This document shows, piece after piece, positions 29,865-35,724 of a DNA stretch of 64,000 nt. A program made the translations under genes and the position numbers. The stretch is taken from the sequence record MZ436830.1. The stretch is one strand, 5' to 3'. Every line of letters starts with the position of its first letter. The first letter of the stretch is position 1. This DNA comes from Escherichia phage JK1. The notes under the pieces are model-generated. The model was not told the origin of the DNA. It did no database searches and was given only the letters and a program-made list of their open reading frames with translations.

Positions 29865-30338
29865 TTATTTGAACGATTTAACGTACTGAATAGAACCTTT
29901 ACTATTCACAAAGGCAATTTTACCATTTTTATTATACATGGTAGCAGTACGTTGATAACCATAAGTTTGTTTACCAGATTGATAACCAACTAATGCGAAA
30001 TTATCTTCGCCCATTTTATTCTGTTTAGCGCGAATGCGTTCATGACCATGTGCCATAAGAACCTTAGCATCACCGGTTGCAATGGATCGACGAGTTTTTT
30101 CATCTTCAACTGTATTAACAAAGTCGTCAAATGAATCAAATTTAGCATGAGATTTATTATACAGTTTTCCATCTACTGCATAATTATATCCCTGTACATC
30201 CATCTCAACTTCTGTACCATCATCCAATACAGCAGTGATTTTTTGACCTTTTTTAAATTTCAAAAGATCAGTAAAAGATTCAGCAATAATTTGAGAATTA
30301 ATAGCTGCTTCAGTGATAAATTCTTGATATGTTTTCAT
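29865..30338 (-). CDS. Internal-protein-like ORF with capsid-targeting-sequence (CTS)-like N-terminus
   Basis: 157 aa; N-terminus MKTYQEFITEA matches the T4 internal-protein CTS (MKTYQEFIAE) with an I-x-E protease-type site; immediately downstream of denV. Confidence 0.6.
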   Translation of the reverse strand: MKTYQEFITEAAINSQIIAESFTDLLKFKKGQKITAVLDDGTEVEMDVQGYNYAVDGKLYNKSHAKFDSFDDFVNTVEDEKTRRSIATGDAKVLMAHGHERIRAKQNKMGEDNFALVGYQSGKQTYGYQRTATMYNKNGKIAFVNSKGSIQYVKSFK

Positions 30339-30347
30339 ATGTTTCCT

Positions 30348-30764
30348 TTAAATGTAAATATTTTTACCGTAATACTTATACCAATGTGGTTTCATTAAAA
30401 TTTTTTCATCAAGTCGTTGTTGACTCAATTTAATAGCTGATTTGCATGGATTATAATCATTTTTCCATTCTATTGGAATATCGCTGATGTCAGGAACTTC
30501 AGTATCTTTTATACTGAACCCGCGTTTTAAGCATTCCGTTATAATGTCTAATTGACGCTTTCGCAAAAATTCTAACTTATCGTAAAAGAACGTAACATGA
30601 CCAGAACCTAAAATAAACTCGGAAGATATTTTAAAATCTTTAACGCGCTTACCGTTTGCCACATGCTTACGAACTATACCAAAAACACGTGGCAATTCAC
30701 GATATTCTGCAATTAAATGCTGATCAGTAAGTTCAGATACTAAAGTCAAATTAATACGAGTCAT
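30348..30764 (-). CDS. denV: Endonuclease V (pyrimidine dimer DNA glycosylase)
   Basis: 138 aa; [37 protein letters not shown] matches T4 DenV as I recall it. Confidence 0.9.
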
Positions 30765-30823: not shown

Positions 30824-31792
<969 letters not shown>

Positions 31793-31811
<19 letters not shown>

Positions 31812-32281
31812 TCAGTGATAAAGCTATTTAAATTTTGGGTATATTTCTTTTCATCAAAAATCTTTTGTTGTCTGCGTAAACGCCATGGCATTTCAATGAA
31901 CGTGTACCATATCCCAGATAATATTGCTGCTGTAAAAATATTAACAAGTATGGTTAAAATAATCCAATCTCCCGTTCTGTCTACTGGACTTTCTCCAAAG
32001 AAGCAAAATACAAATGATGTCACAGGAAAACTAATAATGTACCACAGAATCATAATTTTATCTGTGAACCAATCAGCATTTGTTAACTTAGCACGACCAT
32101 TATGAATACACACGAATTTATCATCTGTTATAATAGATGGCTTAGCTGCTTGATATCCCATTCTAAACTCCCTAATCAACAAATTTTTCATATCTTCGGA
32201 ACAACCATTCCAGTCAACTCTATTAACTGAAATGCCATCATCCCCATCATCTAAATCATACCAGCGAGTTTTTAAAATCAT
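31793..32281 (-). CDS. Membrane protein (2 TM), member of tandem triplet with C-terminal (D/E)CRK(L/I)K-like tail
   Basis: 162 aa; hydrophobic core; ends FITECRKLK. Confidence 0.5.
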
Positions 32282-32640
32282 TTAATTTTCCTACAATCAC
32301 TCACAAACTCTTCCATTGATTCTTTTTCAATATAAGACATGTAGCTATTATATTCCTTTAATTGTATTTTGTAATCCTTTTTTCTTTGCCAATTTATTTT
32401 AAAATTATCATAATGAAAATATAACATGGTACCAAAGAATGAAAATAATGAAATAATTTTAGTATAGTGAAGTTCACTCCAAACTTCTATTATATTTACT
32501 GTGCCGTCAATGTTTAAAATAAGACAGTCAATTAACAATCCAAAAAGACTACCCGCAAGAGCTGCAGCCAACGCTACAGCAAAAATTAAAAATGACTCAG
32601 GAAGAGAATATTTGACTTTATTTAGTTTTGGCTTTTGCAT
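32278..32640 (-). CDS. Membrane protein (2 TM), tandem triplet member
   Basis: 120 aa; ends FVSDCRKIK. Confidence 0.5.
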   Translation of the reverse strand: MQKPKLNKVKYSLPESFLIFAVALAAALAGSLFGLLIDCLILNIDGTVNIIEVWSELHYTKIISLFSFFGTMLYFHYDNFKINWQRKKDYKIQLKEYNSYMSYIEKESMEEFVSDCRKIK

Positions 32641-33035
32641 CGTGATTCCTTAACAAATTTCATAATTTCATCAAATTCATGCGCAGCAAGTTTAAGCTGA
32701 TGTTCCTTTTTAATCTTTTTACACTGAGCTTTCCAATCACGTACACGTTTACGATAGTGTCTTCCTTGATACCAGTATCCTATCCAATTTATAGGTACTA
32801 ATAAAAGCGGAACTACCAATGGAAGAATTAGTGTTGCTCCAAATATTGCACCAGATTCAATATCAGTCATAACGTCTATAACTATTCCAGCAATCAGCAG
32901 AATCACAAATGATACGGCTACCACAGGACCTATTAATACATCAGTAGGAATTAGCTGACGTTTTAGTTCATACTTCACAGGTTCACTTGGAAGGTATAGT
33001 GATGGCTTTGACATATTCTCTACATTCCTTAACAA
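32622..33035 (-). CDS. Membrane protein (2 TM), tandem triplet member
   Basis: 137 aa; ends FVKESRCKSQN. Confidence 0.5.
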   Translation of the reverse strand: MLRNVENMSKPSLYLPSEPVKYELKRQLIPTDVLIGPVVAVSFVILLIAGIVIDVMTDIESGAIFGATLILPLVVPLLLVPINWIGYWYQGRHYRKRVRDWKAQCKKIKKEHQLKLAAHEFDEIMKFVKESRCKSQN

Positions 33036-33588
33036 ATTTTTCTAATAATAAATCGCTTTCAAAATTAGGATTTTCTACGAATTTATCAAAAAGATCATCA
33101 ACAATAGTTAAGATATTCTTTTTACTAAGAATACGTTTATTTTCATGCTTCGTTTCAGAATCAACTATAAGAGTAAAGAAATATTTCTTGCCCTGAAATT
33201 TTACAGTAGTATCAATATAGAATAAATTTGACTTTTGTAAATTACGTTTAAACCATGCATCACTTAAACTATAAACGCCAAGATAATCATAATCGTCGTT
33301 TAAATAACAGACCGTCCATTCAGGAGAAACAAAATCAGTAAATTCAACGTCAAAATCGCATGTTAATAAATGAATTGATTCAATACTGTTAATAAGTATT
33401 CCAGGACGTATTAAAGACTTTTTACCTTTATAAAATCCAGAAAGACTTTCATCAGTTTCATATGAAGAACCCCAATAATAATTACGTCCTTCTGCCATAC
33501 GTTTAAGAGCATTTAATAATTGGTCTGGAACATCAACCTGTCTTTGGAACTCTTCAAACATTGAATTGAAATCACTTTGCATTTTCAT
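32983..33588 (-). CDS. Hypothetical protein
   Basis: 201 aa ORF. Confidence 0.55.
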   Translation of the reverse strand: MKMQSDFNSMFEEFQRQVDVPDQLLNALKRMAEGRNYYWGSSYETDESLSGFYKGKKSLIRPGILINSIESIHLLTCDFDVEFTDFVSPEWTVCYLNDDYDYLGVYSLSDAWFKRNLQKSNLFYIDTTVKFQGKKYFFTLIVDSETKHENKRILSKKNILTIVDDLFDKFVENPNFESDLLLEKFVKECREYVKAITIPSK

Positions 33589-33608
33589 TCCTACTTACTT
33601 CAAGTAAT

Positions 33609-33624
33609 AGGGGCCGAAGCCCCT
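33609..33624 (-). other. Intergenic C(UUCG)G-loop hairpin (RNA-stabilising or weak terminator)
   Basis: Plus ggggc-cgaa-gcccc; no clear U-run. Confidence 0.35.
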
Positions 33625-33629
33625 TATCA

Positions 33630-34223
33630 TTATTTCAGAGAATTAATGTATTCCTGAACATCGGCAGAGGTAGTTTCAACCCCAGAAATATTGCCATTAA
33701 AGGTTTCAACTCGAGCAAGAGTATCTTCAATATCAACCTTAGTCAGTGCTGCAATTTCAACTACATCATCAGCAGTACTAATTCCGAGGGCATTCGCGGC
33801 GCGAGTTTCACGGATATATTCCAATTTAACTGCAAGTTCTTGGCGAGCATCATCTAACTCAACTACTTTCTTGGCGATTTCAATTCGCATTTCAGCATAA
33901 CCATCAGCTTTAGTAGTCAACTGCTCAGCTGTTCGACGATATAGTAAACCAAGTTTAGCATGCATTGTTACATCTTGACCTTCAGAAAGAAGCTTGCGAA
34001 TTTCACGCTCTTTTGATTCGGCCTGTCGATTCTTTTCGACAATAAGTTCACGAATACGTTTTTCTTCATTAATAGATTTAACAGAAGCAGTTTTTAGATC
34101 TTTAATCTTATCAAGTAGTTTTGCTGCCGCAGCAGTATACTGTTCTTCAACAGATAAATTTTTAGCCATAGCAGAACCAAGTTTAGTGCGAATAAACTCA
34201 ACAATTTTCTTCAGCATGTTCAT
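33630..34223 (-). CDS. Coiled-coil protein, possibly PspA/IM30-like
   Basis: 197 aa, strongly helical and charged; family assignment by eye only. Confidence 0.45.
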
Positions 34224-34298
34224 AGCATTTCCTTTAGTTAATTAAGGGTTTTTATAATCCGTGGGAGTATTATACTCTACTCCCAAGAGTTTGTAAAC

Positions 34299-35154: not shown

Positions 35155-35189
35155 TACCAAAAAGCCCCAACCTTTTGGTCGGGGCTAAG
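35155..35189 (-). repeat. 35-nt direct repeat, copy 1 (terminator hairpin plus U-run), downstream flank of the CTS-like ORF
   Basis: taccaaaaagccccaaccttttggtcggggctaag; 32/35 identical to 35690-35724. Confidence 0.7.
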
Positions 35190-35193
35190 AATG

Positions 35194-35655
35194 TTATTTG
35201 ATTTGTTTAGCAGACCAAATGCGATCTTTAATAATTTTTTGGATGTCTTCAACATACTCTAGGTCATGAGCATGTGGATTATCTTTGAAACTATGAGCTC
35301 GCGCAAGTTTCTGGCCTTCGGTCTTAATTATCAAAAGTTCTTTAAGAATTGCTTCATACCTAGAGATAATTCCTTTAGCAATATTTTTTTCTTGTGCTGC
35401 TTTAGGGTCAGCCTTAGGAGCAGGTTTACCAGAAGGTTTTTCGAAAGCCGCACCAGTAGCAACCAGGCTTTTCCAGGCGGTGGTAACATAGTTACCCACA
35501 AAGCCTTCAGCTCTCATATCGTCATAGAACTTGTACCGAGATTCGTCAGAAGCATCTTTATAAGAATATTTACCAGCTTTAATAGCAGCAGTTGCTACAG
35601 CGCGAACATCTGAAGCGGATGCTTCGGTCATTAAAAATTGAGCATAAGTTTTCAT
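35194..35655 (-). CDS. Candidate packaged internal protein: CTS-like N-terminus, own late promoter
   Basis: 153 aa; N-terminus MKTYAQFLMTEA (CTS-like, L-x-E site); AGGAAA ribosome-binding site; TATAAATA 28 nt upstream; flanked by direct repeats. Confidence 0.55.
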   Translation of the reverse strand: MKTYAQFLMTEASASDVRAVATAAIKAGKYSYKDASDESRYKFYDDMRAEGFVGNYVTTAWKSLVATGAAFEKPSGKPAPKADPKAAQEKNIAKGIISRYEAILKELLIIKTEGQKLARAHSFKDNPHAHDLEYVEDIQKIIKDRIWSAKQIK

Positions 35656-35691: not shown

Positions 35692-35724
35692 CCAAAAAGC
35701 CCCAACCTTTCGGCTGGGGCTAAG
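35690..35724 (-). repeat. 35-nt direct repeat, copy 2 (terminator hairpin plus U-run), upstream flank of the CTS-like ORF
   Basis: taccaaaaagccccaacctttcggctggggctaag; hairpin 35698-35721 followed on the minus RNA by UUUUU. Confidence 0.7.

Follow-up and report, generated by a model that had tools for sequence, protein, structure and literature searches.

The window analysed here, a stretch of 64,000 nucleotides (nt) from the T4-like (Tequatrovirus) Escherichia phage JK1 (MZ436830.1), carries three consecutive open reading frames (ORFs), the homologues of T4 e.2, e.3 and e.4, whose predicted products are small two-helix membrane proteins with a conserved C-terminal tail. This tail is specific neither to the triplet nor to membrane proteins; the same short motif, [LIV]-E-x-F-[IV]-x-x-C-R, also ends the soluble protein e.5 and dozens of proteins encoded downstream of e.6, a gene assigned below to the PspA/Vipp1 family by profile comparison. 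The distribution pattern is statistically very strong, and from it we infer a mechanism in which the tails would serve as a docking peptide, the membrane hairpins as anchors, and e.6 as the likeliest partner. We place the probability of this model as a whole at about 35%. The genes concerned, in order of transcription, are as follows.

33630-34223, minus strand: e.6 homologue, 197 amino acids (aa); assigned to the PspA/Vipp1/IM30 (bacterial ESCRT-III) family; first gene of the predicted operon
32983-33588, minus strand: e.5 homologue, 201 aa; no transmembrane (TM) segment; PHROG 2607; tail FVKECR
32622-33014, minus strand: e.4 homologue, 130 aa from ATG; TM1 30-49, TM2 54-76, tail 77-130 ending FVKESRCKSQN
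32278-32640, minus strand: e.3 homologue, 120 aa; TM1 17-45, weaker TM2 61-77, tail 78-120 ending FVSDCRKIK
31793-32281, minus strand: e.2 homologue, 162 aa; predicted cytoplasmic N-domain 1-75, TM1 76-95, TM2 106-129, basic tail 130-162 ending FITECRKLK

An earlier reading of this DNA (the original prediction) had described three consecutive, overlapping ORFs of 162, 120 and 137 aa, each with two hydrophobic helices and a Lys/Arg-rich C-terminal region. The ORFs do overlap in succession, on the minus strand (31793-32281, 32278-32640 and 32622-33035), and their tails end as it had written them, FVKESRCKSQN included. These tails are indeed basic, with Lys and Arg making up 9 of 33 residues in e.2 and 15 of 55 in e.4. 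The lengths of 162 and 120 aa stand; the 137 aa of the third ORF depend on a TTG start at 33035, and an ATG at 33014 gives 130 aa. Because the full-length homologues are all 125-131 aa long, and those inspected begin MSKPS or MSNPS, the start of e.4 is almost certainly the ATG at 33014 (MSKPSL...) and not the TTG. The original prediction had also placed the triplet downstream of lysozyme and nudE, which must be reversed, since transcription of the minus strand puts e.2-e.4 upstream of both nudE and e.

A common C-terminal motif in genes downstream of e.6

Within the window, the pattern [FW][IV]xxC[RK] near a C-terminus was found in this gene run alone, where the motif occupies the following positions. 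The soluble e.5 protein, which ends ...EKFVKECREYVKAITIPSK, carries the same motif as the three membrane proteins.

33019-33036, minus strand: e.5 tail motif FVKECR, with 11 more residues after it
32640-32657, minus strand: e.4 tail motif FVKESR, with the Cys shifted by two residues; I, V or M stands there in other e.4-type proteins
32290-32307, minus strand: e.3 tail motif FVSDCR
31805-31822, minus strand: e.2 tail motif FITECR

Across 11 diverse phage loci, 23 of the 270 ORFs on the e.6 strand feature [FW][IVL]xxC[RK] in their last 30 residues, against a shuffle expectation for the same 270 tails of 0.21 on average and 3 at most in 500; the pattern does not occur once in the 27,137 non-tail residues of these loci. 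An alignment search with e.6 recovered 37 further Straboviridae loci from IMG/VR, each covered for 6 kb on either side of e.6. Downstream of e.6, 124 of 493 ORFs end in the motif and a further 24 do so with I, V or M replacing the Cys, whereas none of the 472 upstream ORFs does. The gene right after e.6 is nearly always a carrier, soluble and 180-290 aa long (the e.5 position), and one to four two-TM carriers come next, with four in tandem in phage PG7. The tail carriers and the PspA-family e.6 are co-encoded, an association seen in 37 loci.

Reduced to 75 non-redundant tails (<70% identical), the carriers comprise 35 proteins without a TM segment and 40 with at least one. In the core of their consensus, position 0 is F in 91% of tails (otherwise W), +1 is I or V in 94%, +4 is C in 73% (otherwise I, V or M) and +5 is R in 85% (otherwise K). 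The upstream half is looser, with L, I, V or F at -3 (69%), E at -2 (35%) and D, E or N at -1 (D/E 38%), and within the core +2 is often K and +3 often E (29%). The protein ends a median of 4 residues past the motif (range 0-24), and in TM carriers the motif lies about 37 residues past the last TM segment. The hydrophobic positions -3, 0, +1 and +4 (i, i+3, i+4, i+7) share one helix face. In e.4-type proteins the Cys position is filled by S, I, V or M; this tolerance, together with the one-face register, leads us to read the 'conserved Cys' as a small hydrophobic contact and not as a reactive thiol. As for resemblance to known peptides, the hydrophobic registers of the PspA/Vipp1 alpha5 'FERME' segment and of the FtsZ C-terminal peptide are ones that we take to differ from that of the tail, and ideas of mimicry were dropped. 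Carriers from other phages include the following.

Mosigvirus ATK47: tails of e.5, e.4 and e.3, FIMECRE.., FVKEIRCK.. and FIKECRK
Jiaodavirus KLB2: five proteins, FIKYCRE.., FVKEVRRK, WIRSCRK, WIKEMK and FIAKCRAK
Dhakavirus JS10: e.2, FIEECRK
Gaprivervirus VR7: carriers e.4 and e.3
Kanagawavirus, Karamvirus and Marfavirus: several carriers each
Aeromonas phage ZPAH1: FIKKCRG.., FVRKCRD.. and FIKECRK..
Aeromonas phage Aes012: FVDYCRR..

The exact peptide E-x-F-I-K-E-C-R-K occurs in four places in IMG/VR, a pattern too narrow to probe the reverse association. Two of these are Mosigvirus-type e.3 proteins, a third (locus L055) actually reads C-S-K, and the fourth (L057) lies on the plus strand inside the coordinates of an 819-aa ORF.

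A second tail family was observed in related phages, in which tandem soluble ORFs of 65-101 aa end G-x-W-[VIY]-S-S-S-x-x-C followed directly by the stop codon, and are interleaved with genes carrying the FIxxCR tail (L006 2984-4243; L022 6210-7803; L027 6067-7637; L024 5802-6328). No ORF with this second tail was found in the window.

e.6 and the predicted early operon

The e.6 family is compact, comprising 36 representative clusters in an exhaustive phmmer search. When a profile of 28 members was compared with the PDB, the top eight matches were all Vipp1/PspA structures (E 8e-5 to 2e-3), collinear over residues 1-140, and 5 of the 28 members match Pfam PspA_IM30 (PF04012; best E 8.9e-10). 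Taken alone, the e.6 protein of the window gives a PspA/Vipp1 match below threshold. The C-terminal ~55 residues are conserved within the family and lie outside the part aligned to Vipp1/PspA. These profiles place e.6 in the PspA/Vipp1/IM30 (bacterial ESCRT-III) family. Elsewhere we found this assignment only as a note in a single GenBank record, that of phage KLB2, which annotates its e.6 homologue 'HHPRED similarity to shock protein A'. Public labels for e.6 are mostly 'hypothetical', or else 'host specificity protein', the latter not supported by our analysis.

The gene order e.6-e.5-e.4-e.3-e.2-nudE-lysozyme e-denV follows transcription on the minus strand, and its course from e.6 to e is that of T4 (T4 gene table, PMC11879866 supplement). 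The neighbouring genes and candidate signals of this region are listed here.

34269-34297, minus strand: sigma70-type early-promoter-like site TTTACA-17-TATAAT, just upstream of e.6; the assignment is an 11/12 consensus match only
33607-33627, no strand assigned: stem-loop GGGGCTTCGGCCCC in the e.6-e.5 gap; the coding strand lacks a T-run
31356-31796, minus strand: nudE (Nudix hydrolase), Pfam NUDIX E 1.5e-13; last gene of the overlapping run
31332-31352: late-promoter consensus TATAAATA, twice, between nudE and e only
30824-31318, minus strand: lysozyme e
30348-30764, minus strand: denV

A single predicted promoter precedes e.6, and the genes from e.5 through nudE overlap, by 19 nt for e.4/e.3 and by 4 nt (ATGA) for both e.3/e.2 and e.2/nudE, the latter from the annotated nudE start. 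The sequence scan located no late promoter of the TATAAATA type in the e.6-nudE run, that is, none ahead of the promoters of gene e. The six genes e.6-e.5-e.4-e.3-e.2-nudE are predicted to form an early operon.

Architecture of e.2, e.3 and e.4

Each protein features two hydrophobic segments, as the original prediction had it, with Kyte-Doolittle peaks (19-residue window, peaks of at least 1.6) and AlphaFold2 helices in agreement. The hydropathy peaks fall at residues 76-94 and 106-129 in e.2 and at 31-49 and 57-75 in e.4; in e.3 a strong segment (17-45) is followed by a weaker one (61-77), which is plainly hydrophobic in distant homologues from Mosigvirus and Gaprivervirus. The AlphaFold2 model of e.2 places helices at 69-95 and 103-160, with a predicted local distance difference test score (pLDDT) of 52, and that of e.4 at 30-49 and 54-108, then, after a break, at 111-128 (pLDDT 71). 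In these models TM2 appears to run directly into a long cytoplasmic helix, which would be followed by a separate terminal helix bearing the motif. Lys and Arg cluster in the N-terminal segments and tails, and the inter-helix loops hold only 0-1 of them; from this distribution an N-in/C-in topology is predicted.

Within Tequatrovirus alignments, conservation in each protein is highest in the tail (33-54 residues) and lowest in the TM1-loop-TM2 region, at column entropies of 0.11-0.16 bits versus 0.3-1.5 bits. The hairpin would be either weakly constrained or diversifying. In Tequatrovirus e.3 and e.4, this region falls into discrete allelic classes with 4-residue indels and nearly invariant flanks, exemplified by an RSNV insertion in e.3 and a VEIIPVIMF... 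class in e.4. The allelic classes suggest cassette exchange, or diversifying selection on the membrane and periplasmic part.

A proposed docking-tail model

The same terminal helix is found on soluble e.5 and on many proteins encoded right downstream of e.6, and for this reason we read the tail as a shared docking peptide. Under this model, e.2, e.3 and e.4 would be early inner-membrane two-helix hairpins, with both termini cytoplasmic and a short periplasmic loop. Their cytoplasmic tails would comprise a basic juxtamembrane helix, then a short amphipathic terminal helix, [LIV]-E-x-F-[IV]-x-x-[C/I/V/M]-[R/K], acting as a common docking peptide for one shared partner. The hairpins may then be interchangeable, fast-evolving membrane anchors that show the tail at the inner membrane; in soluble carriers such as e.5, the peptide would be presented in the cytoplasm. 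As partner, the co-transcribed e.6 is the most economical candidate, after the manner in which LiaI anchors LiaH, or PspB and PspC work with PspA.

In Bacillus subtilis, the PspA homologue LiaH is anchored at the membrane by a small protein of its own operon, LiaI, and PspB and PspC are membrane partners of PspA whose cytoplasmic segments are thought to contact it (PMC9239133). The phage locus resembles the LiaI-LiaH pair in that small membrane proteins share an operon with a PspA-family gene, and we propose the same logic of an anchor that recruits the PspA protein. It differs in showing no sequence similarity to LiaI, in its reversed gene order, with the PspA-like gene first, and in its several anchors and additional soluble proteins with the same tail; the setting is moreover a phage and not a cellular stress regulon, and the interaction in the phage is a proposed one. 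Likewise, the PspB/PspC-PspA system of the E. coli phage-shock operon pairs small inner-membrane proteins with an adjacent PspA-family gene, but PspB and PspC are single-pass proteins of other families without a Pfam match here, and there is no PspF-type regulator at the phage locus. The comparison with LiaI, PspB and PspC would concern the mode of working, not family membership.

The identity of the partner is the weakest step of this model; we infer from the pattern that the tail docks, that e.6 is its partner, and that the system has any physiological role, for example in keeping the inner membrane of the infected cell intact. Several observations weigh against the model. The 37 loci come from related phages that keep the same gene order, and are not independent observations. 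In phage RB43, which has an e.6-like ORF that seems truncated (97 aa), no ORF bearing the tail motif lies on the strand of e.6 for about 4.5 kb in either direction. Proteins e.2-e.5 match none of the PspB, PspC and LiaI families (no Pfam match to PF06667, PF04024 or the LiaI family at E <= 1, and none in NCBIfam). Model confidence is low to moderate and the fold search was empty: the e.4 model matched nothing in the PDB (best E 7), and the e.2 model, at its pLDDT of 52, was too poor to be searched. Knock-down of T4 e.2-e.6 by CRISPRi-ART was scored 'Not Fit', meaning no laboratory fitness cost (PMC11879866, supplement file 15). Finally, the e.2 of the T4 reference is annotated at 102 aa (309 nt), in contrast to the intact 162-aa protein of this phage, and has lost TM2 and the tail; 102-aa forms (P0192 and P0193) also exist among the homologues.

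A bolder version of the docking-tail model, which we hold to be doubtful, is that T4-like phages encode their own ESCRT-III/PspA-type system for membrane remodelling or repair, in which e.6 would be recruited by a short C-terminal 'address' helix, [LIV]-E-x-F-I-x-x-C-R. The adaptors bearing this helix would be a changing set of one to four two-TM anchors (e.2, e.3, e.4 and their counterparts) together with soluble proteins such as e.5, and the fast-evolving hairpins and loops might decide at which site or time in the infected cell envelope the system acts. About a quarter of the ORFs downstream of e.6 across Straboviridae are marked by one short peptide under strong selection, on membrane and soluble scaffolds alike. 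This distribution, taken together with e.6 as a PspA/Vipp1 homologue, turns an orphan block into a testable proposal, that of a phage module for membrane maintenance whose adaptors are addressed by a peptide. Were this correct, phage infection would be tied, from the side of the phage, to ESCRT-III-like membrane biology, and a small docking motif that can be transferred would become available. Were it wrong, the tail would still be a clean family marker with which to correct the widespread annotations 'sulfurtransferase' and 'host specificity protein'.

Relatedness of the three proteins and a possible paralogue array

The original prediction had described the three proteins as duplicated, a claim that is partly supported: e.3 and e.4 show detectable kinship from where TM2 ends up to and including the tail, e.2 has only the terminal ~18 residues in common with e.3, and the hairpins are not demonstrably homologous. 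Pairwise BLASTP, and hhalign with profiles of close relatives only, gave no significant global similarity among e.2, e.3 and e.4, only short local matches. With profiles broadened by divergent homologues from Mosigvirus, Jiaodavirus, Gaprivervirus, Kanagawavirus, Marfavirus and Dhakavirus, e.4 and e.3 align over 44-47 columns from the TM2 end to the motif at an hhalign probability of 90-94% and a score of 45.9, as compared with 14.8 +/- 3.3 (maximum 24) for controls whose columns were shuffled separately in the TM part and the tail. Removal of the motif leaves a score of 31.4 and a probability of 65%. Between e.2 and e.3 the last 18 columns alone align (probability 70%), between e.2 and e.4 there is effectively no similarity (hhalign probability 6%), and the TM hairpins could not be aligned among the three. 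Shuffle Z-scores of 4-8, obtained between different two-TM proteins, were rejected as evidence of homology, as shuffling breaks up hydrophobic blocks and inflates such scores. These alignments suggest that e.3 and e.4 are probable paralogues, and that e.2 would have only its tail in common with the triplet, so that 'triplet of duplicates' appears partly right.

In phage vB_EcoM-UFV05, protein P0142 is a natural chimera in which residues 1-31 of e.4 continue in frame into residues 88-162 of e.2, e.3 having been lost. It corresponds to window positions 32922-33014 joined to 31796-32020, and its junction is a short common DNA stretch (TCCTGTG...ATCATTTGT) at the start of TM1. This chimera indicates that the array has been remodelled by recombination.

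Such observations bear on the first alternative to a docking tail, in which these genes would be fast-diverging tandem paralogues whose tail is the last recognisable remnant of common descent, each with a role of its own, such as superinfection exclusion or the countering of membrane-acting defences through the variable hairpin. The relatedness of e.3 and e.4 beyond the motif speaks for it, as do the e.4::e.2 chimera, the arrays of one to four two-TM tail genes that vary between genera (four in PG7), and the concentration of variation, indels and cassette-like allelic classes in the hairpin and periplasmic loop. The carriers, however, differ in architecture, ranging from soluble proteins of 180-290 aa or 80-100 aa to two-TM proteins with or without an N-domain, and a neutral remnant should not show the highest conservation of any segment. 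Neither is there a match to Imm or to defence-related families. Superinfection exclusion and defence evasion, which the original prediction had offered among its functions, drew neither support nor contradiction from the Pfam, NCBIfam and PADLOC searches, which had no matches. T4 Imm is a small, early inner-membrane superinfection immunity protein with two hydrophobic segments, and to that extent resembles the proteins described here; yet e.3 and e.4 gave no Pfam match of any kind at E <= 1 and belong to different PHROG families, in comparisons that did not include a direct alignment of Imm itself. Imm is not known to carry this tail. Overall, we regard the paralogue explanation as unlikely.

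Possible membrane targeting by the terminal helix

A second alternative requires no protein partner, and takes the terminal helix to be a membrane-targeting amphipathic helix of the MinD/FtsA kind that lays the tail on the inner leaflet and would carry the soluble proteins to the membrane. The helix is C-terminal, its hydrophobic residues at i, i+3, i+4 and i+7 are flanked by Lys and Arg, and its hydrophobic moment of 0.40-0.49 falls within the 0.29-0.57 computed for MinD and FtsA helices; targeting would also account for the motif on soluble proteins encoded beside membrane proteins. Against this, acidic residues are frequent around the core at the percentages given above for -2, -1 and +3 (E 35%, D/E 38% and E 29%), which is unfavourable on an anionic membrane, and only some four positions are hydrophobic. 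The near-invariant F (91%) and R (85%) are more typical of a specific protein contact. Membrane targeting is on balance an improbable explanation of the tail.

Selection on the tail and translational coupling

The tail codons also overlap signals for translation of the next gene, which raises the alternative that the shared tail is a by-product of translational coupling, arising from the Shine-Dalgarno sequence and ATGA overlap of the following gene, with no function at the protein level. The K-E codons of the motif, AAG GAA or GAG GAA, make up a Shine-Dalgarno sequence 7-12 nt before the next ATG, and the terminal K and stop codon read AAATGA, holding the ATG of the next gene. The F codon lies mostly 17-26 nt ahead of the next start, and the e.5 and e.4 junctions are identical over 16 nt.

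33024-33039 and 32645-32660, minus strand: two identical copies of the 16-nt AAATTTGTTAAGGAAT as a direct repeat, one at the end of e.5 and one at the end of e.4, bracketing e.4; the repeat encodes K-F-V-K-E and the Shine-Dalgarno sequence of the next gene

Coupling accounts for +2, +3 and the final K alone. The remaining motif residues F, I/V, C and R are kept by many synonymous codons, including TTT and TTC for Phe, TGT and TGC for Cys and all six codons (AGA, AGG, CGT, CGC, CGA and CGG) for Arg, with Ile codons varying also; synonymous variation of this kind argues for selection at the protein level. The distance from motif to next start ranges from 11 to 95 nt, and the motif survives where +2/+3 do not resemble a Shine-Dalgarno sequence (K-Y, K-H, D-Q, R-I, A-K), where 11-24 further residues follow it, or where the next start is 43-95 nt away. 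No overlapping gene pair elsewhere in the window yields the motif. Moreover, since each tail overlaps the next gene by just 4-32 nt, dual coding cannot explain 33-54 conserved residues. Codon usage and conservation together indicate that the tail is under protein-level selection, and an origin in coupling without protein-level function is very improbable. As a separate observation, the AAATTTGTTAAGGAAT repeat may allow the e.4 cassette to be lost or gained precisely.

Lysis timing and degradation, two improbable roles

The original prediction had offered lysis timing as a function, and holin- or antiholin-like proteins of class II near the endolysin would indeed look much like these. Class II holins such as S21 of phage 21 are likewise small, with two TM segments, N-in/C-in topology and a charged C-terminal tail, and e.2-e.4 lie 0.5-1.7 kb from lysozyme gene e. 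In contrast to such holins, e.2-e.4 are predicted to be early and not late, the TATAAATA late promoters being predicted from sequence just between nudE and e, and the same tail is found on soluble proteins. The holin of T4 is the product of gene t, and t, e, rI/rIII and the spanins together explain T4 lysis. The knock-down had no fitness effect (PMC11879866), and the truncation of e.2 in the T4 reference comes with no known lysis defect; a holin-like role is disfavoured and highly improbable.

Equally remote is the speculation that the tail is a C-terminal degradation signal by which a host protease (ClpXP, FtsH or Lon) clears early proteins later in infection: the motif lies close to the C-terminus (a median of 4 residues away), has basic residues after it and is common to otherwise unrelated early proteins, but anything from 0 to 24 residues can separate it from the free C-terminus, and the conserved core F-I-x-x-C-R is not known to resemble a degron.

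Identity and annotation of the locus

The 2.4 kb around the triplet are 99.2% identical to Escherichia phages slur04, teqhal and teqsoen, and 513 phage records match, nearly all of them Tequatrovirus. Full-length PHROG matches were obtained for e.2 (2203, E 2e-78), e.3 (2330, E 2e-60) and e.4 (2604, E 5e-69), the families given in the T4 annotation (PMC11879866 supplement), and the nearest homologues of the three proteins are 92-97% identical. Across Tequatrovirus the orthologues are 82-100% identical and lie between e.5 and nudE in the same order as in T4. By full-length profile match and conserved position, the three ORFs are the orthologues of T4 e.2, e.3 and e.4.

Pfam, NCBIfam and PADLOC searches returned no matches for e.2-e.5; the local Pfam copy was one without PF26896 and PF26873, the identifiers precomputed on close homologues of e.2 and e.4, respectively. 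Many GenBank/PGAP homologues of e.3 and e.4 are labelled 'sulfurtransferase', which looks like a propagated error. PspE is a rhodanese, and the label was hence weighed as a lead; the identity was then rejected, there being no rhodanese match in Pfam or NCBIfam, and e.3 and e.4 consisting of a TM hairpin and helices. The genes e.2-e.4 themselves are already known as annotated orphans. In T4 they have long been carried as 'conserved hypothetical, predicted membrane protein' (PMC11879866, supplement file 8), and e.2-e.6 were still listed as unknowns in a recent genome-wide screen (PMC11879866 supplement). When the literature was searched, neither e.2-e.4 nor a PspA kinship of e.6 turned up in the main text of papers, and we found no published account of the shared terminal helix, of its restriction to genes after e.6 across Straboviridae, or of its membrane and soluble carriers.

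Some further features of the region differ from T4 or lie outside the operon. The T4 reference table places ipII and ipIII between denV and e (PMC11879866 supplement); both are absent here, with denV adjoining e, and a 157-aa ORF at 29865-30338 follows denV. Two near-identical terminator-like hairpins, AGCCCC..AAAGGTTGGGGCT with a T-run, lie ~535 nt apart on the minus strand at 35698-35721 and 35163-35186, and bracket a 153-aa ORF at 35194-35655.

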